From assembly GCA_028714735.1 (NCBI GenBank), contig JAQTLU010000002.1:443840-483839 (forward strand): DNA of 40,000 nt, read 5' to 3'. The position numbers and the translations under genes are program-made. This document shows positions 1-12,499 of this stretch, one piece after another. How positions within the stretch are numbered: position 1 is the first letter of the stretch; each line of letters begins with the position of its first letter. Origin of the DNA: Gallionellaceae bacterium. GTDB lineage: Bacteria; Pseudomonadota; Gammaproteobacteria; Burkholderiales; Thiobacillaceae. The notes beneath the pieces were generated by a model. It made no database searches and was not told the origin of the DNA. It saw only the letters and a program-made list of their open reading frames with translations.

Positions 1-1337
1 GCGATCACTACGCCCTGCGCTTCCACAGCCGCCCGGAGTTCATCGGCACCCTCTGGGAGGGGGCGTTGGCGCTGGACGAAGACGGGCGCATCCTGGCGGC
101 CAACCGCAGCGCCCTGTTTCAGCTCGGCTACAAGAAACCGGCCGACCTGCTGGGATTGCGGGTGGCGGACCTGTTCAACACCGGCATGGCCGAACTGTTG
201 GGCAAGAAGAACCAGGGCTGGCTCAACCCGGTTCCGCTCTACGAGGCGCGCCAGGGCAACCGCTTCTTCGGCCTGATCCGCCCGCCGGAAACCCAGACTT
301 CCGCCGCACCGGCTGCCGCTGCCCCGGCCTCCGCCCGTCGCGCCCAGCCCTCGCAGGCGGCCCCGGGCGGGCACAAGGTCATCGGTCTGGACGAATTGCA
401 GTTTGGCGACCAGGCCATGGAGTACAACGTGCGTTGCGCCAGGCGCGTGCTGGGCAAGGATATCCCCATGCTGTTGTCGGGCGAGACGGGTACCGGCAAG
501 GAGGTGTTCGCGCTGGCTGTCCATGCCGAGCAGGCCGGCGAGGGGCGTCCCTTCGTCGCGGTGAACTGCGCCTCCATACCGGAGTCGCTGATCGAGAGCG
601 AATTGTTCGGCTACAAATCCGGCGCCTTCACCGGGGCGACCCGCGAGGGGCGGCGCGGCAAGATTCTCCAGGCCAACGGCGGCACCCTGTTCCTGGACGA
701 GATCGGCGATATGCCGATCATGTTGCAGGCCCGTTTGCTGCGGGTGCTGGAAGAGCGGGAAGTGGTTCCGCTGGGCAGTGAAATCCCGGTCAAGGTCGAT
801 ATCAAACTGATCAGCGCCACCCATCGAAACCTGAAGGAACTGGTGGCGGAAGGCCGCTTCCGCGAGGATTTGTACTACCGCCTGCAAGGCATCACCCTGA
901 ACCTGCCGGCCCTGCGCGAGCGACAGGACAAATGCGCCCTGATCCATCACATCCTCAGCCTGGAATGCGAGGGCGGGGAAGAGGTCGAGTTGAGCGAGGG
1001 CGCCCTGCGCAAGCTGGAGGAGTACGCCTGGCCCGGTAACATCCGCCAGTTGCGCAACGTGTTGCGCACCACCCTGGCCTTGCGGGAAGGCCGCGAGATC
1101 ACCATCTGCGATTTGCCCGGGGAGGTCAGCAATCAGGTGCATTCCAGCCATGTGCGCGCCCATGCCGTCGAGGCATCCCTGGGCGCCCTGGAAAGCGCCG
1201 AGCGGGATGCCATCCTGCAGAGCCTGGAAAAATGCCGCTGGAACGTCACCATAGCGGCCAAGCAACTCAAGGTCAGCCGAAACACCCTCTATCGCAAGAT
1301 GAAAAACCTCAATATACGCAGCACCGAGGAGGAATGA
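1..1337 (+). CDS. Sigma-54-dependent transcriptional activator (bEBP, AcoR/NtrC-like), 5' end outside window
   Basis: The reading frame is open from the window edge, upstream of the TTG at 66. It has Walker A GETGTGKE, the sigma-54 contact motif GAFTGA, and a C-terminal Fis-type HTH (AAKQLKVSRNTLYRKMK). An Ala/Pro-rich linker precedes the AAA+ core. Confidence 0.9.
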   Translation, partial: DHYALRFHSRPEFIGTLWEGALALDEDGRILAANRSALFQLGYKKPADLLGLRVADLFNTGMAELLGKKNQGWLNPVPLYEARQGNRFFGLIRPPETQTSAAPAAAAPASARRAQPSQAAPGGHKVIGLDELQFGDQAMEYNVRCARRVLGKDIPMLLSGETGTGKEVFALAVHAEQAGEGRPFVAVNCASIPESLIESELFGYKSGAFTGATREGRRGKILQANGGTLFLDEIGDMPIMLQARLLRVLEEREVVPLGSEIPVKVDIKLISATHRNLKELVAEGRFREDLYYRLQGITLNLPALRERQDKCALIHHILSLECEGGEEVELSEGALRKLEEYAWPGNIRQLRNVLRTTLALREGREITICDLPGEVSNQVHSSHVRAHAVEASLGALESAERDAILQSLEKCRWNVTIAAKQLKVSRNTLYRKMKNLNIRSTEEE

Positions 1338-1338
1338 T

Positions 1339-1833
1339 TTGTTGTCTTCACCTTTCGTCACCTGGGTCGAACCCGTCGACCTGGGCTTCAATTCCGCGCA
1401 TTTCATCACCTACGGCAATGTCTGCGAGAACCTGCATGGCCACAATTTCCACGCCCGGGTGGCGGCCCACGGCGACGACATGGGGGAAGGTTACGTGCTC
1501 GATTTCGTCGCCCTGACCCGCCTCGCCCGGGATATCTGCGAGGAACTCTCCGACCGGGTGATCCTGCCTGGCAACAGTCCGGTGGTGCGCCTCGAAGAAG
1601 AGGATGGCCTGGTCAAGGTGAGCAGTTTCGGCAAGCGTTACTGGCTGGAGCGGGACGGCTGCGCCATCCTGCCGATCGGCAACGCCACCGCGGAACTTGT
1701 CGCCCGCTACATCGGCAGCCGACTTGTCGATGTCCTTGGCCGGGAAGGGCTGGACGGCAACCTGCGCCTGCTGGAGGTGGGCGTGGAAGAGGCCGACCGC
1801 CAGTGGGGCATCTCCCGCCACGCGCTGTCATGA
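1339..1833 (+). CDS. 6-pyruvoyl-tetrahydropterin synthase (PTPS/QueD) family protein, pterin cofactor biosynthesis
   Basis: 164 aa with a TTG start 1 nt after the upstream stop. It carries the family motif C-E-N-L-H-G-H (CxxxHGH) and an upstream AHF histidine. The size is typical of a single-domain PTPS. Confidence 0.8.
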   Translation: MLSSPFVTWVEPVDLGFNSAHFITYGNVCENLHGHNFHARVAAHGDDMGEGYVLDFVALTRLARDICEELSDRVILPGNSPVVRLEEEDGLVKVSSFGKRYWLERDGCAILPIGNATAELVARYIGSRLVDVLGREGLDGNLRLLEVGVEEADRQWGISRHALS

Positions 1834-5030: not shown

Positions 5031-5620
5031 TCGGCCTTCGCCTTCGCCTTCGCCAGCCAGGCACCCAGCGCAGCCGGGTCGTCATGGCCGAGGATGCCGA
5101 CGGGCCGGCCGAAGGCGGCGGCGAAGCCGGCGAAGGCCGTATCCACCCGGTGCCGATCGGCCGCAGGATCGAAGGCGTGTACGCCGTCGGGGCCGTGCTT
5201 GATCAGGGCCAGGGCGTCGGCGTCGAGGACGCCGGCCAGCCAGGCCGCCAGGCTGTCCGAGGTGACCGACCAGGCCTCCGGTATGTCCGGGGCCTGCAGA
5301 CACATGGCCGCGGGTTGCCAGACCGGCGTCCGTCCCCGCTCCAGGATGGCCGCGATGGTTTGGCTGGAGGCGGCGGGCAGCAGGCCTGGATGCAGGTCGC
5401 ACAAGGCCAGGCCGTATTGCTCCATGGCCAGCAGGGCCATCCTGTGGGCCGTGGCGTCGGAAAAGCCCAGGCGCGCCTGGGTGATCCGCACCGCGTCGGC
5501 ATAGGGGCCGCCGCCGGGGACCACCACCACCTGCCCTCCCGCCCCGGACAGCGCCTCCAGCCAATCGGGCAGGCGCGGGGCGTCGAGCAGGCTGCCGCCC
5601 AGCTTCACGACCCTGAGCAT
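5027..5620 (-). CDS. Amino-acid-kinase-fold protein (aspartate/glutamate/uridylate kinase family), MfnE-like candidate
   Basis: Start at MLRVVKLGGSLL (5620), which is the kinase-fold N-terminal motif. There is a C-terminal AKAKAKAD tail. Its stop shares the tetranucleotide CTAG with the convergent mfnB stop. Confidence 0.7.
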   Translation of the reverse strand: MLRVVKLGGSLLDAPRLPDWLEALSGAGGQVVVVPGGGPYADAVRITQARLGFSDATAHRMALLAMEQYGLALCDLHPGLLPAASSQTIAAILERGRTPVWQPAAMCLQAPDIPEAWSVTSDSLAAWLAGVLDADALALIKHGPDGVHAFDPAADRHRVDTAFAGFAAAFGRPVGILGHDDPAALGAWLAKAKAKAD

Positions 5621-7023
5621 TGCGCGTCGTCCATGCCGCTGCCGCACTCTTGCGCCAGTCGCAACAGGGCGGCCGCCTTGTCCAGGCATTCCTGATATTC
5701 CTCATCCGCCTGGGAGTCGGCGACGATGCCGCCGCCGGCCCAGAAGCGCAGTTGCGCGCCGGAGCTGACCAGGGTGCGGATGGCGATGTTGGTGTCCATG
5801 TCGCCGTTGAAGCCCAGCCAGCCGATGGCGCCGCAATACACGCCACGCCGGTCGGGCTCCAGTTCCTCGATGATCTCCATGGCACGCAGCTTGGGCGCCC
5901 CGGTGATGGAGCCGCCGGGGAAGCAGGCACGCAGCAGGGCGACCGCGTCGACGTCCTTGCTCAGGCGTCCGATCACGGTGCTGACCAGATGATGAACGGT
6001 GGCGAAGCTCTCGATCTCAAACAGCCGGGGCACGGCCACGGAGCCGGGGACACAGGACTTGCCCAGGTCGTTGCGCAACAGGTCCACGATCATCAGGTTC
6101 TCGGCCCGGTCCTTGATGCTGCCCTGCAACTCGCGTGCAAGAGCGGAGTCCGCTTCCGGCGCCGCGGCGCGGGGCCGCGTGCCCTTGATGGGTTTGGTTT
6201 CCACGCGGCCCTGTCGAACCACCAGGAAACGTTCCGGCGAGGAGGAGAGCACGCGGACGGCCGGGTGGTTGAGATAGGCGGAATAAGGGGCCGGATTGAG
6301 CCGGCGCAAGGCCTGGTAGCCGAGCCAGTGGTCTCCCGCCACCGGGGCGGAAAAACGCTGGGCCAGATTCACCTGGTAGCAGTCGCCGGCGGCGATGTAG
6401 CGCTGTATGCGGGCAAAGGCCTGGCGATAGGCAGCCGGGTCGAAGTTGCTGCGCATCGGGCCGACCCGGAAAGGCGGCCGCGCCGGGATGCGGTCAGCGG
6501 CGATCGGGGGCGCACTGAACAGGGCCACCAGCTTGTCCCAGTCGCGCTCGGTGCGCGGGTCCCGGAGTGCACCCGCCAGACAGGCCGTACGTTGTTCATG
6601 GTCGACCACCACCGCCCAGTCGTAGATGCCCACGGCCATTTCAGGGATCGCTTCGGCGTCCCGGGCCTGGCAGGGCAGGCGTTCCACCCGGCGGGCCAGG
6701 TCGTAGCCGAAATAGCCGATGGCGCCGCCGGCGAAGGGCAGTTCGTGGCCGATCCCGTCCGCCGCCAGGTGTTGGCGCAGCAATGCGAAGGGGTCGCCGG
6801 GAGACAGGCTGACGGCGGCCTGCCGGTCGGGGCCGTATCGGCGGATCTCGGTCATGCCGCCCCGCGTGACCAGGGTGGTGCTGGGCCGGGCGGCCAGGAT
6901 ATCGAGGCGTCCGGCGCTGGTGCGGGGGCGGCCGCTGTCCAGGAACACGGACCAGGGTTCGTCGGCGATCGCCTCGAACAACAAGGCGCTGTCGGGGCGA
7001 TAGGGGATGGCCGTCATGCGCAT
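5605..7023 (-). CDS. pabB: Aminodeoxychorismate synthase component I (para-aminobenzoate synthase)
   Basis: About 470 aa of the chorismate-binding enzyme family (…SSSPERFL…, GGSITGAPK, GVYCGAIGW). The start MRMTAIPY at 7023 is chosen over the upstream M at 7071. pABA is a precursor of both folate and methanopterin. Confidence 0.85.
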   Translation of the reverse strand: MRMTAIPYRPDSALLFEAIADEPWSVFLDSGRPRTSAGRLDILAARPSTTLVTRGGMTEIRRYGPDRQAAVSLSPGDPFALLRQHLAADGIGHELPFAGGAIGYFGYDLARRVERLPCQARDAEAIPEMAVGIYDWAVVVDHEQRTACLAGALRDPRTERDWDKLVALFSAPPIAADRIPARPPFRVGPMRSNFDPAAYRQAFARIQRYIAAGDCYQVNLAQRFSAPVAGDHWLGYQALRRLNPAPYSAYLNHPAVRVLSSSPERFLVVRQGRVETKPIKGTRPRAAAPEADSALARELQGSIKDRAENLMIVDLLRNDLGKSCVPGSVAVPRLFEIESFATVHHLVSTVIGRLSKDVDAVALLRACFPGGSITGAPKLRAMEIIEELEPDRRGVYCGAIGWLGFNGDMDTNIAIRTLVSSGAQLRFWAGGGIVADSQADEEYQECLDKAAALLRLAQECGSGMDDAQCSGS

Positions 7024-8042
7024 GGTTTGTCCTTCATCAACAGGCGTCCTACCGCCAGGGCCGGGGCGCACCAGTCGGCGTGTTCGGCGGCGCTGTCGGG
7101 CAGGAGGCGATGGAAACCCAGCACCGGCCGTCTCAGGCGGGCGCCCAGGTGCGGCCCCAGGAAGGCGCCGGCGCCGGCCATCACCAGGGGGGCGTCGGCG
7201 CTGGGCAGCGCCTGGGACAGCACCTGGCGCAGCGACCGTTCGATGCGGTTCAACTGGGCCTGGGCGAACCAGGCCGCCAATTCGCTCCAGGCCGCCTCCG
7301 GCAGTTCCCCGACATCCCTGCCTACCATCCGGGCCAGGCGCCGGCGGCTGGCCGCCCGGGTCTTCGGGCCGCCGTCGGCGCTGTCATGCTGGTCAGCCGC
7401 CTCGGGCAGCCAGCCGAGGACCCGGTAGACGTCGGCGCTGGTGGCGAAATGCTCCGCCATGACCGGCAGCCAGCGGCCGGCGACCGGGGCCTGGTCCGCG
7501 AGGGCCATGGCCGGGGTGCGCACCACGCCGGTGTAGAGCAATTCGCCGGCGGCCAGGCGGTCGCTGTCGCCCTGGCTGTCGGTGGCGACGCCGCCGTTGC
7601 GCACCGGGATGATGTCCGTGGTGGTGCTGCCGATGTCCACCAGCAGCGCGTCCTCGATATGGCTGGCCAGCAGGCGCGCTGTCGCGTACCAGTTGGCGGA
7701 CGCCACCCGGTCGGCGGCGCGGCCCAGATCGTTGCCGCCCAGCCAGCCGGCGGCGCCGGCGAAAAACCAGACCGGAGCGGGTTGCAGGCGTTGCCGCATG
7801 GCCTCGGCCAGGGCGTTCACGCCCGCTTCCCGGGAACTGAACAGGTCGGTCATTTCCCCGGTCATGGTGATGCCATGGCAGGCCGCGGCAGTGCCCGCCA
7901 GCTCCAGCAGGCGATCCAGGGCGGTCGCGAGCCGGTCCATGCCGCGCCAGAGCGGGCAGGGCACCTGCCAGACGCCCGATACGACGCCGTCCGCTTCCAC
8001 CCGGGCCGCCTTCAGATGGGCGCCGCCCACATCCCAGCCCAT
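7014..8042 (-). CDS. Hydantoinase-A/ASKHA-fold protein of the H4MPT-linked C1 transfer pathway family (MfnF-like candidate)
   Basis: Start at MGWDVGGAHLK (8042), an ASKHA phosphate-1-like motif, with a later LVDIGSTTTD motif. The upstream portion of the 431-aa track ORF is Arg/Gly/Pro-rich. Confidence 0.7.
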   Translation of the reverse strand: MGWDVGGAHLKAARVEADGVVSGVWQVPCPLWRGMDRLATALDRLLELAGTAAACHGITMTGEMTDLFSSREAGVNALAEAMRQRLQPAPVWFFAGAAGWLGGNDLGRAADRVASANWYATARLLASHIEDALLVDIGSTTTDIIPVRNGGVATDSQGDSDRLAAGELLYTGVVRTPAMALADQAPVAGRWLPVMAEHFATSADVYRVLGWLPEAADQHDSADGGPKTRAASRRRLARMVGRDVGELPEAAWSELAAWFAQAQLNRIERSLRQVLSQALPSADAPLVMAGAGAFLGPHLGARLRRPVLGFHRLLPDSAAEHADWCAPALAVGRLLMKDKPCA

Positions 8043-8059: not shown

Positions 8060-9055
8060 TCACGCGGCGATCCTTTCCGGGCTGGGCGCACAGGTTTCGG
8101 CCAGGGTCACCGGGACGAGGGCATGGCAGGGCGTGAATTCGGGCAGGGCCAGCACGCGTTGCGCCGGATTGCTGGCCATGGCCGCATGCAGGCCGGCGTA
8201 GGACAGGGTAAGGCGCGGATTGATCTCCAGTACGCGGGGCCCGTCCGCCGCCGCGACCAGATCGATGCCCACGTATCCCCACAGATCCGGCAGGGCCTCG
8301 GCGATGCACCGGGCGACCGCTTCATAGCGTCCGTCCGGATCGGCCATGGCGTTGACGGTGACGCCGCGGAAGCGGAAGCGGCCATCCTCAAGGCTGACCT
8401 GCTGGCGGTTCACGCTCAGCAGTTGTGCCTGGCCGTCGCAGCACAGGATGGACAGGGAGATCGACTCCCCGGCCAGGTAATACTGGAAGGCGAAATTTTT
8501 GCCGCCGTTGGCCAGCACCCAGGCCTCGGCTGCGTGCAAGCACTCGAAATGGAACGTGTCCTGGCAGCCGGCGCCGTCGTCGGGTTTTGCCACCAGCGGC
8601 CGGTCTGCGCTCATCAGGAAAGGCGAGCTGTAGGTTCTTGCCACCCGCACACCGGAGGCGGCGAGGTGCTGCAGGGTGGCGTGCTTGCTGGCCGCCACGC
8701 GCACCGCATCGGGGTGGCAGCCGAGCAGGCGCTTGCCCGCGGCCAGGATGTCCCGGCTCAGGCGCTCCAGGATGCCGTCGCATTCCGGCGCTATCGGCCA
8801 GACGGCGTCCGCCGCCGCCAGGCATTGGCGGAAATCCTCGGCAAAGCGCTCCGCACTGGTGGCGACGACCTCCAGGCGCGGTCGCTGCGGCATCGCCAGG
8901 CGGCTGTCCCGCATGCTGATGACTTCCACTTCGTCCAGGGCGATGAGATCATCCACCAAGGCCTGCCACATGGCCTCGCCGTCGCCGAGCAGGCCGGACA
9001 GCGGCTGGTCGGCATAGCCCCCGCCGGTAACATATTCGAAGACAAAGATTCTCAT
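8060..9055 (-). CDS. ATP-grasp ligase (COG1821/MfnD-like, tyramine-glutamate ligase candidate)
   Basis: 331 aa. It has the N-terminus MRIFVFEYVTGGG, and the C-terminal LEINPRLT is typical of the ATP-grasp fold. Confidence 0.7.
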   Translation of the reverse strand: MRIFVFEYVTGGGYADQPLSGLLGDGEAMWQALVDDLIALDEVEVISMRDSRLAMPQRPRLEVVATSAERFAEDFRQCLAAADAVWPIAPECDGILERLSRDILAAGKRLLGCHPDAVRVAASKHATLQHLAASGVRVARTYSSPFLMSADRPLVAKPDDGAGCQDTFHFECLHAAEAWVLANGGKNFAFQYYLAGESISLSILCCDGQAQLLSVNRQQVSLEDGRFRFRGVTVNAMADPDGRYEAVARCIAEALPDLWGYVGIDLVAAADGPRVLEINPRLTLSYAGLHAAMASNPAQRVLALPEFTPCHALVPVTLAETCAPSPERIAA

Positions 9056-9761
9056 GGTCGATTCCTTGCAACTGATTCCCGTGCTGGACCTGATGGACGG
9101 ACACGTGGTGCGCGCCCGCGCGGGCCGGCGCGATCAATACCGTCCGCTACAGTCGGCATTGTGCCGCTCCAGCCAGCCTGCCGAGGTGGTTTCCGGCTTG
9201 CTGGACCTGCATCCGTTTCGACGGCTTTACGTCGCCGATCTCGATGCCATCCTGGGCCGGGGCGATCACCGCGCCACCCTGGAGGCGTTGCGCAGGGCGT
9301 ATCCGGAGCTGGAACTCTGGGTCGACGCCGGCTTCGCCAGCCCCGCCGCCGCCCGTGACTGGCAGGCCGGCGGCTTGGGCCGTGCCGTGCTGGGCAGCGA
9401 GAGCCTGGCCGGGCTGCCGGAAGGTGTCGCGTGTCCGCCCGGCGGGCTGCTCTCCCTGGATTTCCGCGGCGAGGAGTTCCTGGGCCCGGCCGGACTCGAG
9501 CAGGATGCCCGGCATTGGCCCGACGAGGTCATCGTCATGACCCTGGCGCGGGTGGGCATGGGCCAGGGGCCGGATATCGCGCGCCTGAAGCATCTGCGCG
9601 GCCTGGCGCCGGGCCGCCGGTTCTACGCCGCGGGGGGCGTGCGCGATGGCGCCGACCTGGCTGCGCTGGCGCAGGCCGGGGCGGCGGGCGTCATGCTGGC
9701 TTCGGCCCTGCATGACGGGATATTCAGTCGAGTCGAGCTTGCCGCTTTTCATTCCGGCTGA
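9054..9761 (+). CDS. HisA/HisF-family (beta/alpha)8 barrel protein, H4MPT-cluster type
   Basis: 235 aa. LIPVLDLMDGHVV at the N-terminus and GGVRDGADL near the C-terminus are HisA/HisF-like phosphate-binding motifs. Confidence 0.7.
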   Translation: MVDSLQLIPVLDLMDGHVVRARAGRRDQYRPLQSALCRSSQPAEVVSGLLDLHPFRRLYVADLDAILGRGDHRATLEALRRAYPELELWVDAGFASPAAARDWQAGGLGRAVLGSESLAGLPEGVACPPGGLLSLDFRGEEFLGPAGLEQDARHWPDEVIVMTLARVGMGQGPDIARLKHLRGLAPGRRFYAAGGVRDGADLAALAQAGAAGVMLASALHDGIFSRVELAAFHSG

Positions 9762-10944
9762 CCTCCGAGCGCAGCCATTGCCGCCAGACCGAGCTGCCCC
9801 GCGCCGGGTCGGTGAATTGTCCCAGCAGGGGCTGGCTGCCCTGGCGCTGCCAGGTTTCCAGGTCGGGCCCGGTGTACTGGCGCCAGGACTGGGGCGTTTC
9901 GTACAAGGTGAGCGTGTCCAGTTCGGGCAGGTAGTCGATCAACTGCTCCCAGATGTACACGCTGAGTAGCTCGGTCGTGGAGCGCCAGGCCAGTTCGGCT
10001 CCGGCATAGTTGAGGGTGTGGTGGTCGAAGCGTTCCACGACCCGTGCGTTCACCACCCGCTTCAGATAGCCGTAATCCAGCACGCAGCCGGTGGCGGGAT
10101 CGATTTGGCCGCGTACCTTGACCTGGAGGACATAGCGGCCGCCATGCAGGTTGCTGCATTTGGCCGGATGGTCGGTGAGGAAGTGGGCGGCATCGAAGAC
10201 CACCTCCTTGCTCACGCTGACTTCAGGGGTGTCCGGATGGAAGCGCGCCCAGACCCCAGGCATGGCCTCCAGTTCGGACTTCAGCCCCGCCAGCAGACGC
10301 TCCGCGTCGGATTTGGCATAGGTCCGCAGCAGGGGGGCGCCCGCGTCCAGGCGGCGGGTGCGCACGGCCAGTTCGCGGGACAGGAATTCGGCTGCCTCCT
10401 CGGCCTCATGTTCCGAGGCGAAGGGCAGGAACAGGTATCCGGCATGCCGTTCTGCGGCATGGGCCAGATAGCTGGCATATTTCAGTCGCTGTTCCGGTGG
10501 CGGCACCCTGGCGGGTAGCCAGGGGCCGACCAGATTGCGTTTGTGCGTCGTCAGGCAGTTCCTGGCCACGACCCGGTGGTTGCCGGGGGCATACAGGTAT
10601 TCCTGTCGATACCGGAAGCCGTAGGGGGCGAGTCGGGCCAGGACCCAGAACAGCAGGTCCAGCCTGGCCACTTCCCCTTCGATCCGGCACTGACTGCCCT
10701 GGTCGACGACCTTCCCGGCCAGGCGCAGGCCGGCCAGGACCGCTCTGGCGGTCTCGTCCGGCACGGCGGCGGGCAGGAGGGGAAGGTCCTCATCCCGCGC
10801 CGTGTCGATCCTGTCCGGGCTGACCAGAAGATCGAGCGGCAGGGCGTGACGCAGGGCGTATTCCTGCAGGGTGAGACCGCTGCAGGCGAACAGATGCCCG
10901 TTGTCGAGTTCCTCCACCGTGGCTTGGCACTCCAGGCAACGCAC
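9724..10944 (-). CDS. Fusion protein with an N-terminal Ros/MucR-like zinc-finger motif, an unknown middle domain and a C-terminal PTPS/QueD-like domain
   Basis: 406 aa. The C-terminal ~150 aa carry PTPS motifs (FDAAHF, CSNLHGG, ERFDHHTLN, LYETP). The N-terminus MRCLECQATVEELDNGHLFACSGLTLQEYALRHALPLDLLVSP resembles the Ros/MucR block CLECG..(9)HL..HH..TPEEYR.KW.LP.DYPMVAP. It lies 13 nt downstream of fae. Confidence 0.75.
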   Translation of the reverse strand: MRCLECQATVEELDNGHLFACSGLTLQEYALRHALPLDLLVSPDRIDTARDEDLPLLPAAVPDETARAVLAGLRLAGKVVDQGSQCRIEGEVARLDLLFWVLARLAPYGFRYRQEYLYAPGNHRVVARNCLTTHKRNLVGPWLPARVPPPEQRLKYASYLAHAAERHAGYLFLPFASEHEAEEAAEFLSRELAVRTRRLDAGAPLLRTYAKSDAERLLAGLKSELEAMPGVWARFHPDTPEVSVSKEVVFDAAHFLTDHPAKCSNLHGGRYVLQVKVRGQIDPATGCVLDYGYLKRVVNARVVERFDHHTLNYAGAELAWRSTTELLSVYIWEQLIDYLPELDTLTLYETPQSWRQYTGPDLETWQRQGSQPLLGQFTDPARGSSVWRQWLRSEVSRNEKRQARLD

Positions 10945-10957
10945 AGCGCACTTCCGC

Positions 10958-11470
10958 TTAGATGTGGGCGGCGAAGGGGTGTCCCGCGCTGCCCTTCTGG
11001 GCCACGACCTCGACGGCGGTGGGCGTGCCGGCCACGGCGCGCTTGATCGACTGCTTGGTGGCCTCGTAGTTGTAGTCCTGGATCTTGGTGTCGTCGTTGG
11101 CTTCCCAGTGGATGAACACGCCGACGCAGATGAACAGGTTGTCGGCTTCGTCGGCCGGAATGGTGCCGTCCTCGACGCAATCCGCCACCGCCATGGCCAC
11201 GCCGCGCTGGGCCGGCCCGAACATTTGCACCGCCTGCTTGGCGCCCTTGATGGTCACCTTGTTGAACATCATGGTGTTGGGCTTGCAGGGCAGGTTGGGG
11301 GCCACCACGGCGAGCAGGGAGGTGAAGCCGTCCTTGTTGTTGACCAGGCCGTTGCAGAACGCCGATTCGACGGCACTGCCGCGGGGGCCCATGATCAGGT
11401 CGATATGAGCCACCTCGTTGCCGTCGCCCACCAGGGACTCGCCTACCATCACGCGATCGATCTTAGCCAT
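10958..11470 (-). CDS. fae: Formaldehyde-activating enzyme
   Basis: 170 aa. [32 protein letters not shown]...[13 protein letters not shown] is a near-textbook Fae sequence. An AAGGAG SD lies 7 nt upstream of the ATG. Confidence 0.95.
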
Positions 11471-11581
11471 CTTTATTCTCCTTGGAATTGCACAGACTCG
11501 GTTGGATTGAAATGGTGGGCCAGCGCCGAGTCGTTCGCGGGCAAACCAGTGGTTTCAACACCTGAAAGGCGTTTCAAAACA

Positions 11582-12499
11582 TCAAACATCCCGTTTTTCA
11601 TTCCGGGCCTGATTTGAATTCATGTCCCTGCCGGCATGGCCAAGCCGGTCCGCCAGCCAGGTGGCCACGGTGAGGTCGGCGCTGGTGCCGGGGTTGATCG
11701 CCGCCGACTTGAAGGCCTGGTCGAGGGCCTCGATGCGGGTCCGCACGCTGCGCCAGTCTGGGCATCGGGATAGCTCATCCAGGCAGGACCGGGCCATGCC
11801 TTGCACCCGTTCCGCGGTGGCCAGGCCGTGCTTGCGCGCCACGTGGCTGTCCGGAAATTCGGCCAGGTAGCCGAGATAGACCAGCACCCCGGCCCGCTCG
11901 TCGCTGCCCAGGCGGATGCGTTCCCGGCGCAGGGCAGGCAGGCCGGAGGCGAAGATGTCGGCGTAGCCGTTGGCGTACTGGCAGGCGATGCGGTCGCGCT
12001 GCGCCGCTTCGGCCATGGCGGTCAGCAGGCTGACCGCGGGGCGCGTACGTACGTCGTGGCGCGGACTTGTGCCCAGACCGGCCGGGGCGGCGAGACAGAT
12101 GGCCCGGTAGGCCCACTCGGCATCCTCCCGGTCGAGCCCGGCCAGGGTGTGGTGCAGACGCCCGGCCAGGGTCTCGCCGGGCCGGCGGTTCTGGGCGGCA
12201 TGGATCAGGGGCGCGGCGAGCAGGACGATGCCCAGGTTGGTGTTGCATGCCACGGCCCGGTGCGTGGCCTCGATGGCCCGGTAGATGCGTTCGCCGACGC
12301 CCAGCGCCGGGTCGGCGAGCGGCGGGGCGGCGGCGGCGGCACTGAGCAGGAAATCATCGGCCGTCATGCCGTGCCCGGGGGAGTCGTGGCTCACGTTGCC
12401 GGGCTTGAAGGCCGACACATCGAGGGCGCAGGCCTCGATGAAGGCCGCTGCCGGAGCCATCGGGCAAGCCGGGATGGGGGGCGCCAGGCGGGCGTTCAT
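11582..12499 (-). CDS. Triphosphoribosyl-dephospho-CoA synthase (CitG/MdcB) family protein, H4MPT-cluster type
   Basis: Start at MNARLAPP (12499) forms an ATGA overlap with the upstream stop. It is CitG-like (KPGNVS...NTNLGIVLL...INPGTSADL). The 623-aa track ORF is an artefactual upstream extension. Confidence 0.75.
   Translation of the reverse strand: MNARLAPPIPACPMAPAAAFIEACALDVSAFKPGNVSHDSPGHGMTADDFLLSAAAAAPPLADPALGVGERIYRAIEATHRAVACNTNLGIVLLAAPLIHAAQNRRPGETLAGRLHHTLAGLDREDAEWAYRAICLAAPAGLGTSPRHDVRTRPAVSLLTAMAEAAQRDRIACQYANGYADIFASGLPALRRERIRLGSDERAGVLVYLGYLAEFPDSHVARKHGLATAERVQGMARSCLDELSRCPDWRSVRTRIEALDQAFKSAAINPGTSADLTVATWLADRLGHAGRDMNSNQARNEKRDV

Follow-up and report, generated by a model that had tools for sequence, protein, structure and literature searches.

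What would a bacterium do with a protein that joins a Ros/MucR-type zinc finger, a LAGLIDADG domain in which both catalytic acid positions are replaced and a QueD-like pterin domain with an altered metal site, and that is encoded directly behind fae in an island of genes for tetrahydromethanopterin (H4MPT) and methylofuran metabolism? This question is raised by an open reading frame (ORF) of a Gallionellaceae bacterium assigned to the Thiobacillaceae in GTDB (GenBank assembly GCA_028714735.1, contig JAQTLU010000002.1, positions 443,840 to 483,839 of the forward strand). We refer to the whole 40,000-nucleotide (nt) stretch that was analyzed as the window, and all coordinates are those of the window. 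The ORF, which we call the fusion gene, occupies 9724–10944 on the minus strand, starts with GTG and encodes 406 amino acids (aa); the plus-strand frame across the same interval is interrupted by stop codons. The start codon lies 13 nt past the fae stop codon, with a GGAAG box and no terminator-like site in the gap, and a promoter and terminator scan of window positions 9000–12000 found nothing.

In the full-length AlphaFold2 model, the whole ORF (9724–10944, minus strand) is resolved into a zinc finger, a LAGLIDADG domain, a QueD domain and a C-terminal tail, and a compact protein is predicted with a pLDDT (predicted local distance difference test) of 90.1 and a pTM (predicted template modeling score) of 0.86. 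When the full-length protein is searched against Pfam and NCBIfam, PTPS is the only family recovered, and the finger and the middle region were placed only via structure prediction and distant relatives. The results described below establish this architecture of three domains and show that each domain is homologous to its assigned family. All three domains belong to known families, and their combination is not described in the literature that we searched: articles on orf19, on COG0720 with methanopterin, on QueD with LAGLIDADG and on Thiobacillus with H4MPT contain nothing on the fusion protein, and no viral protein spanning all three domains is found in BFVD.

The C-terminal domain is a QueD/PTPS T-fold covering aa 240–360 (9865–10227, minus strand), as identified by both Pfam and Foldseek. 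Pfam PTPS (PF01242) matches aa 244–359 with an E-value of 2.4e-29 and 102.2 bits, against a cut-off of 22.4, over 119 of its 121 profile positions. Foldseek superposes the C-terminal domain of the AlphaFold2 model on the QueD structures of Pseudomonas aeruginosa (2OBA) and Escherichia coli (4NTK) with a template modeling (TM) score of 0.9, a root-mean-square deviation (rmsd) of 1.7 Å and 31–33% identity. Alignment to E. coli QueD places H254 at His16, C263 at Cys27, H267 at His31, G269 at His33, D307/H308 at Asp70/His71 and E349 at Glu110. Thus, as compared with QueD/PTPS-I enzymes (4NTK and 2OBA, 31–35% identity), the fusion protein has in register the catalytic Cys, the Asp-His pair, the pterin-anchoring Glu and two of the three zinc histidines, whereas it differs from them by a Gly in place of the third zinc His, an AWRS insertion, a C-terminal extension of 47 aa and 240 additional N-terminal residues. 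The extension itself, aa 361–406 with the stop codon (9724–9864, minus strand), is helical, and in and just before it the residues G359, P360, L362 and F377 are conserved, phage relatives included.

The altered metal site lies in the QueD C-x3-H-G-H motif, which by translation and alignment reads CSNLHGG (10138–10158, minus strand), so that the third zinc-binding His is Gly269. We examined how general this is among relatives, for which the genome matches detailed are the best 80 of at least 145 species, with synteny counted in 78–80 loci. HGGR is found in 76 of the 78 species-level homologues, HGG in 77 of them and HGH in none, and the substitution is therefore no sequence error. No variation is seen at C263, D307, H308 and E349 among 32 diverse members drawn from both of the clades described below, a clade of sulfur-oxidizing bacteria and a phage-like clade. 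The phage-like clade likewise reads HGG throughout, except for one variant (P0164), in which alone the canonical HGH was seen. Another variant (P0132) has HGGH, in which a His comes one residue further on. The QueD domain is also the most conserved segment of the protein: it is 67% identical among bacterial members and 49% identical between bacterial and phage members, as compared with 61% and 40% for the finger and 40% and 18% for the LAGLIDADG domain. The QueD domain of the window is 54–57% identical to those of four of five phage-like loci, 41% identical to that of the fifth (L089) and 35% identical to E. coli QueD.

The middle region, aa 62–235 (10240–10761, minus strand), is a double LAGLIDADG fold by Foldseek and hhalign. 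The window protein has no direct Pfam match here to LAGLIDADG_2 (PF03161), and sequence-profile searches of the PDB with the N-terminal and middle regions give sub-threshold matches only. AlphaFold2 modeling of aa 1–238 (pLDDT 90.9) predicts two copies of an alpha-beta-beta-alpha-beta-beta topology, and the top Foldseek matches in the PDB are all LAGLIDADG proteins, namely I-Tsp061I (1.2e-6), I-SceI (1.3e-5) and WhiA (3HYI, 2.3e-5), with the bI3 maturase and I-DmoI, and also intein endonuclease domains, among the further matches in the 1e-6 to 1e-4 range. Alignment by hhalign to relatives that do match LAGLIDADG_2 in Pfam (E-values of 1e-22 to 1e-30) gives 99.7% with an E-value of 8e-26. The first LAGLIDADG motif is degenerate and reads LAGLRLAG (aa 70–77; 10714–10737, minus strand), with Ala76 at the catalytic Asp position, and the second, also degenerate, reads LAHAAERHAG (aa 160–169; 10438–10467, minus strand), with His162-Ala163 in place of the DD of MDDG. 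In the hhalign alignment, Ala76 and His162-Ala163 fall on the catalytic Asp residues of the relatives' LLGDG and MDDG motifs. Because both catalytic acid positions are replaced, we conclude that the middle domain is, as judged from its sequence, a nuclease-dead LAGLIDADG scaffold.

This scaffold has the double alpha-beta-beta-alpha-beta-beta-alpha fold and the motif remnants of LAGLIDADG_2-type monomeric homing endonucleases such as I-SceI, I-DmoI and I-Tsp061I, although it is ~30 residues shorter. Unlike those homing endonucleases, it lacks the catalytic acids and is not free-standing, intronic or intein-borne, but is placed in frame before an enzyme domain. WhiA (DUF199) offers another likeness, since it also retains a nuclease-dead LAGLIDADG scaffold in a cellular protein; the match is a structural one. 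WhiA adds a C-terminal helix-turn-helix, whereas the fusion pairs its scaffold with an N-terminal finger and a C-terminal T-fold, and neither Pfam nor the predicted structure reveals a helix-turn-helix domain in the fusion.

The N-terminal region, aa 1–45 (10810–10944, minus strand), is a Ros/MucR-type zinc finger with C3, C6, H17 and C21 as putative ligands (CCHC), which are kept in 74 of 78 species homologues; the fourth ligand is a Cys that aligns with the Ros His. With the full-length fusion as query, Pfam ROS_MUCR (PF05443) gives no match. With aa 1–52 alone, ROS_MUCR is the sole Pfam family found, at E-values of 0.006–0.01 and 16–17 bits, below the cut-off of 25.4, and the match covers only the zinc-finger part of the profile (positions 67–103 of 123). 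A PDB profile search with the N-terminal region places Ros (2JSP) in register at a sub-threshold E-value of 0.81. The fingers of relatives score 18–28 bits against ROS_MUCR, and one of them (P0180, 28.0 bits) passes the cut-off. A profile of aa 1–238 searched against 1.84 billion representatives retrieves two multi-finger ROS_MUCR proteins (P0168 and P0169), and hhalign of the finger alignment against the fingers of these two proteins and Ros gives a probability of 97.5% with an E-value of 6.5e-12 over 43 columns. The finger is modeled as two short strands followed by helices that bear H17/C21 and the segment TLQEYALR. From these comparisons, we take the resemblance of the finger to Ros/MucR to be true homology.

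The likeness to Ros/MucR (Ros87, 2JSP) thus consists of a CLEC...HL...(H/C)..T..EY...LP block in register and a strand-strand-helix-helix order. Unlike Ros/MucR, the fusion has a CCHC rather than a CCHH finger that starts at residue 3, it lacks the N-terminal oligomerization domain of MucR and the basic C-terminal tail, and in the bacterial clade its finger is net acidic. In the fusion, as in two other proteins (P0170 and P0172), the finger is followed by a module derived from a homing endonuclease. The prokaryotic Ros finger is usually described as single-copy, and the layout of the two retrieved proteins is therefore unusual: by Pfam ROS_MUCR, P0168 (560 aa) has three tandem Ros/MucR fingers (136 bits) and P0169 (464 aa) has six (309 bits). 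The CCHC finger also heads other homing-endonuclease-like or phage modules in P0170, P0171 and P0172; in P0170 it is followed by AntA and MUG113/T5orf172, and in P0172 by a DUF559/Vsr-like domain. Its position ahead of these other nuclease-like modules suggests that the CCHC finger is a reusable DNA-targeting module of mobile nucleases. One variant of the fusion (P0154, 382 aa) is without the CxxC half of the finger.

Close homologues of the fusion protein are numerous, with lengths of 405–415 aa and 50–83% identity, and a scan of species-representative genomes finds the architecture in at least 145 species of sulfur-oxidizing beta- and gammaproteobacteria. The best 80 matches include Thiobacillus (76–80% identity), Parasulfuritortus, Sedimenticola, Thiodiazotropha, Thiorhodococcus, Thiogranum, Porisulfidus and other sulfur-oxidizing gammaproteobacteria, and no named methylotrophs are among them. 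The identity to Thiobacillus makes a Thiobacillus-like betaproteobacterium the most likely source of the window. A second, phage-like clade consists of proteins of 440–490 aa on low-GC (27–45%) metagenome contigs. These proteins have the finger, the LAGLIDADG domain, the QueD domain and the conserved tail in the same order, with canonical LLGDG and MDDG motifs intact, and they match ROS_MUCR, LAGLIDADG_2 and PTPS in Pfam. Their contigs encode a DNA polymerase A with an intein, dUTPase, primase and topoisomerases. FolE2 (GCHY-1) is found nearby in three of the loci (L005, L006 and L170), and QueC lies 1 kb upstream of the fusion on the contig of P0176; FolE2 and QueC belong to 7-deazaguanine precursor synthesis. 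The phage-like fragments available, which are 13–21 kb long, contain no QueD homologue other than the fusion. Metagenome assemblies are the sole source of phage-type fusions: a tblastn search of cultured phages in INPHARED, a scan of IMG/VR and BFVD give no fusion, only separate LAGLIDADG or QueD proteins, and free-standing LAGLIDADG_2 genes of ~30% identity are common in IMG/VR phages. Several of the phage-like loci also carry inteins with LAGLIDADG/HNH domains in genes for DNA polymerase A and topoisomerase IV (L005/L006, 1742–5410; L170, 8794–10461; L171, 8284–10938), and the intein-bearing genes of contigs whose fusions have intact motifs adjoin the FolE2-type GTP cyclohydrolase.

In the window, the fusion gene lies within an island that contains genes for a sigma-54 activator, an orf19-type PTPS, a DUF447 protein, MfnB, an amino-acid kinase, pabB, a hydantoinase-like protein, MyfB, orf17, the fusion, fae, a CitG-like protein, MyfA and mch, with names taken from PMC8141765 and PMC3615186. 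Upstream the fusion is adjoined by fae (10958–11470, minus strand; Pfam Fae, E-value 2.3e-69). On its other side is orf17 (9054–9761, plus strand), a HisA/HisF-like gene required for methylofuran synthesis (PMC8141765), which is convergent with the fusion and overlaps its 3′ end by 38 nt (9724–9761). We considered and rejected the possibility that the fusion is itself the "orf17" that follows fae in Methylorubrum, as orf17 is the convergent HisA/HisF-like neighbor at 9054–9761 (PMC8141765). The orf17 and myfB genes are divergent and overlap by 2 nt (9054–9055), which leaves these two genes no intergenic promoter space. A pabB-like gene is found at 5605–7071 (minus strand) and the stand-alone, orf19-type PTPS paralogue at 1339–1833 (plus strand). 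This paralogue belongs to the same superfamily and the same island as the fusion; unlike the fusion, it is 164 aa long, has an intact HGH (VCENLHGH) and lacks both a DHH motif and an N-terminal module, and it is ~40% identical to the fusion's QueD domain over 48 aa only. As the two coexist, neither replaces the other. A sigma-54 enhancer-binding activator flanks the orf19-type PTPS end of the island, both in the window (66–1337, plus strand) and in L003 (19831–21227), where it carries MimR_N and GAF domains; it is a candidate for a dedicated regulator of the island.

The same island order is repeated in Thiosocius teredinicola and another gammaproteobacterium (~55% identity), and around a low-GC member of only 38% identity. 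Of 79 loci, 66 have a same-strand fae immediately upstream of the fusion; a convergent orf17 adjoins it downstream in 65 of 78, and pabB is no more than 6 kb away in 64 of 80. Conserved synteny at a fixed place in the H4MPT/methylofuran island is thus a property of the bacterial clade. In six loci (L126, L128, L139, L163, L155 and L158), pabB directly follows the fusion gene, and four of the six are without fae in the flanks that were fetched. In L126, L128, L139 and L163, the fusion is detached from fae and followed by the pabB-like gene, and L163 has a long MTHFR-domain protein upstream. The spacer between fae and the fusion is 13–23 nt in Thiobacillus and 60–266 nt in gammaproteobacteria. 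Immediately behind fae, most gammaproteobacterial spacers (L110–L169) contain a GC-rich hairpin, in many cases ATTGCCCCGG...CCGGGGCAAT, and those of five low-GC loci (L140, L151, L154, L166 and L167) have a full intrinsic terminator with an AT-rich stretch after it that resembles TATAAT, as read by eye. In one locus from Porisulfidus/Oxydemutatoraceae metagenome-assembled genomes (L149), a uracil-DNA-glycosylase-superfamily gene (5434–5961) lies between fae and the fusion, with transaldolase after it; a second locus from these genomes (L161) has ORFs of the same size and order, matched by size and order alone.

A preliminary description of this locus, made from the DNA letters alone, had read the protein as a Ros/MucR-like finger, an unknown stretch of ~190 aa and a PTPS-like domain, all directly downstream of fae. 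Pfam, the AlphaFold2 model and the 13-nt gap to fae agree with that layout and position. The PTPS/QueD-like nature of the C-terminal region is borne out by the PTPS match above cut-off and the T-fold superposition, and its HGG substitution by the translation, the E. coli QueD alignment and the 76 of 78 homologues with HGGR; the stand-alone paralogue does keep CENLHGH, as had been noted. The finger was correctly recognized as well, since aa 1–52 match ROS_MUCR only, the two multi-finger proteins are retrieved and hhalign connects them; moreover, the N-terminal segment is not missing from orthologs, as the CCHC set in 74 of 78 homologues indicates. Where profile searches and structure prediction had been proposed for the three regions, they place PTPS above its cut-off and ROS_MUCR below its own, and they make the middle region a LAGLIDADG domain. 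The middle, which the description matched to nothing, has no direct Pfam match; the description missed the nuclease-dead LAGLIDADG domain that structure and hhalign reveal, and also the occurrence of the architecture in phage proteins. As for distribution, the architecture occurs in at least 145 species, and fae is upstream of the fusion in 66 of the 79 loci counted.

To account for these observations, we lean toward a reading in which the fusion protein is probably an active QueD-like pterin enzyme that carries a domesticated homing-endonuclease module and works in pterin-cofactor metabolism tied to the island. The fusion gene would then be a domesticated relative of the phage-type homing endonuclease-QueD fusion. 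Its C-terminal domain would still be an enzyme that binds a neopterin-type pterin through Glu349 and works on the pterin side chain with the Cys263/Asp307/His308 set, while the metal would be held by two histidines, His254 and His267, plus substrate or water. QueD-like chemistry of this kind would give 6-carboxytetrahydropterin or a related side-chain-shortened pterin. The gene would be expressed with or just after fae and kept near pabB, in line with a role in pterin-cofactor metabolism linked to the island, and the nuclease-dead module of finger and LAGLIDADG domain would be no nuclease but an appendage kept for structure, assembly or partner binding. What argues for an enzyme is the invariance of the Cys, Asp-His and Glu residues, the position of the QueD domain as the most conserved segment, the occurrence of HGG in both clades and the biosynthetic linkage. 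Because HGG is also present in phage relatives beside FolE2 or QueC, it would not be a local decay of the site. The preliminary description had named a multidomain biosynthetic enzyme of the H4MPT pathway as its second choice; an enzyme does fit better than a sensor, given the conserved QueD residues and the pabB linkage, and its product may feed either H4MPT or preQ0/queuosine.

Several observations weigh against this enzyme reading. The QueD equivalog model of NCBIfam (TIGR03367) scores 77.3 bits, under its cut-off of 89.25, and the PTPS subfamily model (TIGR00039) scores 85.9 bits, under its cut-off of 125.5. The three-histidine zinc site is incomplete, with H254 and H267 kept and G269 as the third. 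The island already has the stand-alone orf19-type PTPS, so that the need for a second PTPS is unexplained. A further QueD may be encoded elsewhere in the phage genomes, the contigs being fragments, and we infer the order of events, from phage to bacterium or the reverse, from motif decay only. Finally, the finger, with 61% mean identity and its four ligands kept, and the LAGLIDADG domain are both under purifying selection, which points to a role for the N-terminal domains beyond that of a pure enzyme.

That last point also speaks for the view preferred in the preliminary description, namely that a DNA-binding finger had been fused to a compromised pterin-binding fold to give a pterin- or cofactor-sensing regulator. 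In such a protein, the finger and the dead LAGLIDADG saddle would sit on an operator of the one-carbon (C1) island and the T-fold would be a ligand sensor only. Two of the domain types have a known role in DNA recognition, and the nuclease acids are lost and yet the fold and the finger are conserved. A dead LAGLIDADG scaffold is known to act as a DNA-binding platform in the transcription factor WhiA, which ranks among the top matches by structure, and the QueD site lacks one of its zinc ligands. In addition, several low-GC gammaproteobacterial loci, with their terminator-like hairpin and the TATAAT-like stretch seen by eye, may express the gene below fae. However, HGG is common to phage relatives whose LAGLIDADG motifs are intact and is thus not specific to the nuclease-dead clade, none of the remaining catalytic residues varies and no part of the protein is more constrained than the QueD domain. 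The charge of the N-terminal domains also argues against DNA binding by the bacterial proteins, although as a test it is crude: aa 1–45 carry a net charge of −4 in the window protein and of −3.2 on average across the bacterial clade, and the LAGLIDADG domain of that clade is about neutral (+0.4), versus +1.8 and +5.7, respectively, in phage versions. A place 13–23 nt behind fae in Thiobacillus would be odd for a regulator, the gene accompanies the biosynthetic gene pabB in loci where the island is disrupted, and the island has its own sigma-54 activator. In 67 loci, exact k-mers were counted in the spacer between fae and the gene and in the 250 nt that precede fae; this weak and crude test found no shared operator, the only signals being the conserved end of the CitG coding sequence and GC-rich hairpins or terminators. 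With the fixed HGG, the invariant residues, the acidic finger and the pabB linkage in mind, we regard the regulator as unlikely. A broader proposal keeps nucleic-acid binding by the finger and the dead LAGLIDADG saddle, which would bring the purine/pterin-binding T-fold to its site, either as a WhiA-like, pterin-responsive regulator of the island or, in phages and bacteria, as a site-directed enzyme acting on a guanine/7-deazaguanine-type base in DNA or RNA. We consider this distinctly unlikely; if true, it would be a new coupling of a homing-endonuclease scaffold to T-fold chemistry.

An enzyme need not serve the island in which it resides, and the fusion could be a housekeeping QueD that arrived as a mobile cassette, settled between fae and orf17 and then lost its nuclease; having replaced the host queD, it would serve preQ0/queuosine, with no role in H4MPT or methylofuran metabolism. 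Its closest solved structures and sequences are those of bacterial QueD, FolE2 or QueC is found near its phage relatives, and the island contains an orf19-type PTPS in any case. The two genes that it separates, fae and orf17, are listed as neighbors in the island of Methylosinus trichosporium OB3b, and named methylotrophs are absent from the best 80 genome matches. Against this, pabB stays the direct neighbor in rearranged islands, and this adjacency points to pterin/p-aminobenzoate (pABA) cofactor synthesis, though it could be a leftover of the island. We therefore treat a merely resident QueD as a rather unlikely explanation. It is most improbable that the gene is still a selfish, currently mobile element, in which an active LAGLIDADG homing endonuclease is fused to its cargo or target gene. 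The phage relatives do keep LLGDG and MDDG, in genomes rich in inteins and homing endonucleases, but both catalytic acids are replaced in the window's clade, the position is fixed with fae (66 of 79 species loci) and orf17 (65 of 78) as neighbors, and the whole protein is under purifying selection across beta- and gammaproteobacteria.

The fusion protein exemplifies the in-frame joining of a homing endonuclease to a metabolic enzyme and, in bacteria, would also exemplify domestication, in which the nuclease is dead while the fold and the finger remain under selection across beta- and gammaproteobacteria. It also adds a tightly linked, uncharacterized gene to the H4MPT/methylofuran islands of sulfur oxidizers such as Thiobacillus, Sedimenticola and Thiodiazotropha symbionts. 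The database name "6-carboxytetrahydropterin synthase" masks both its extra domains and its altered metal site. The family also represents a widespread QueD clade that is without one canonical zinc ligand. If this HGG clade is active, then the accepted three-histidine requirement of the PTPS/QueD site would not be absolute.

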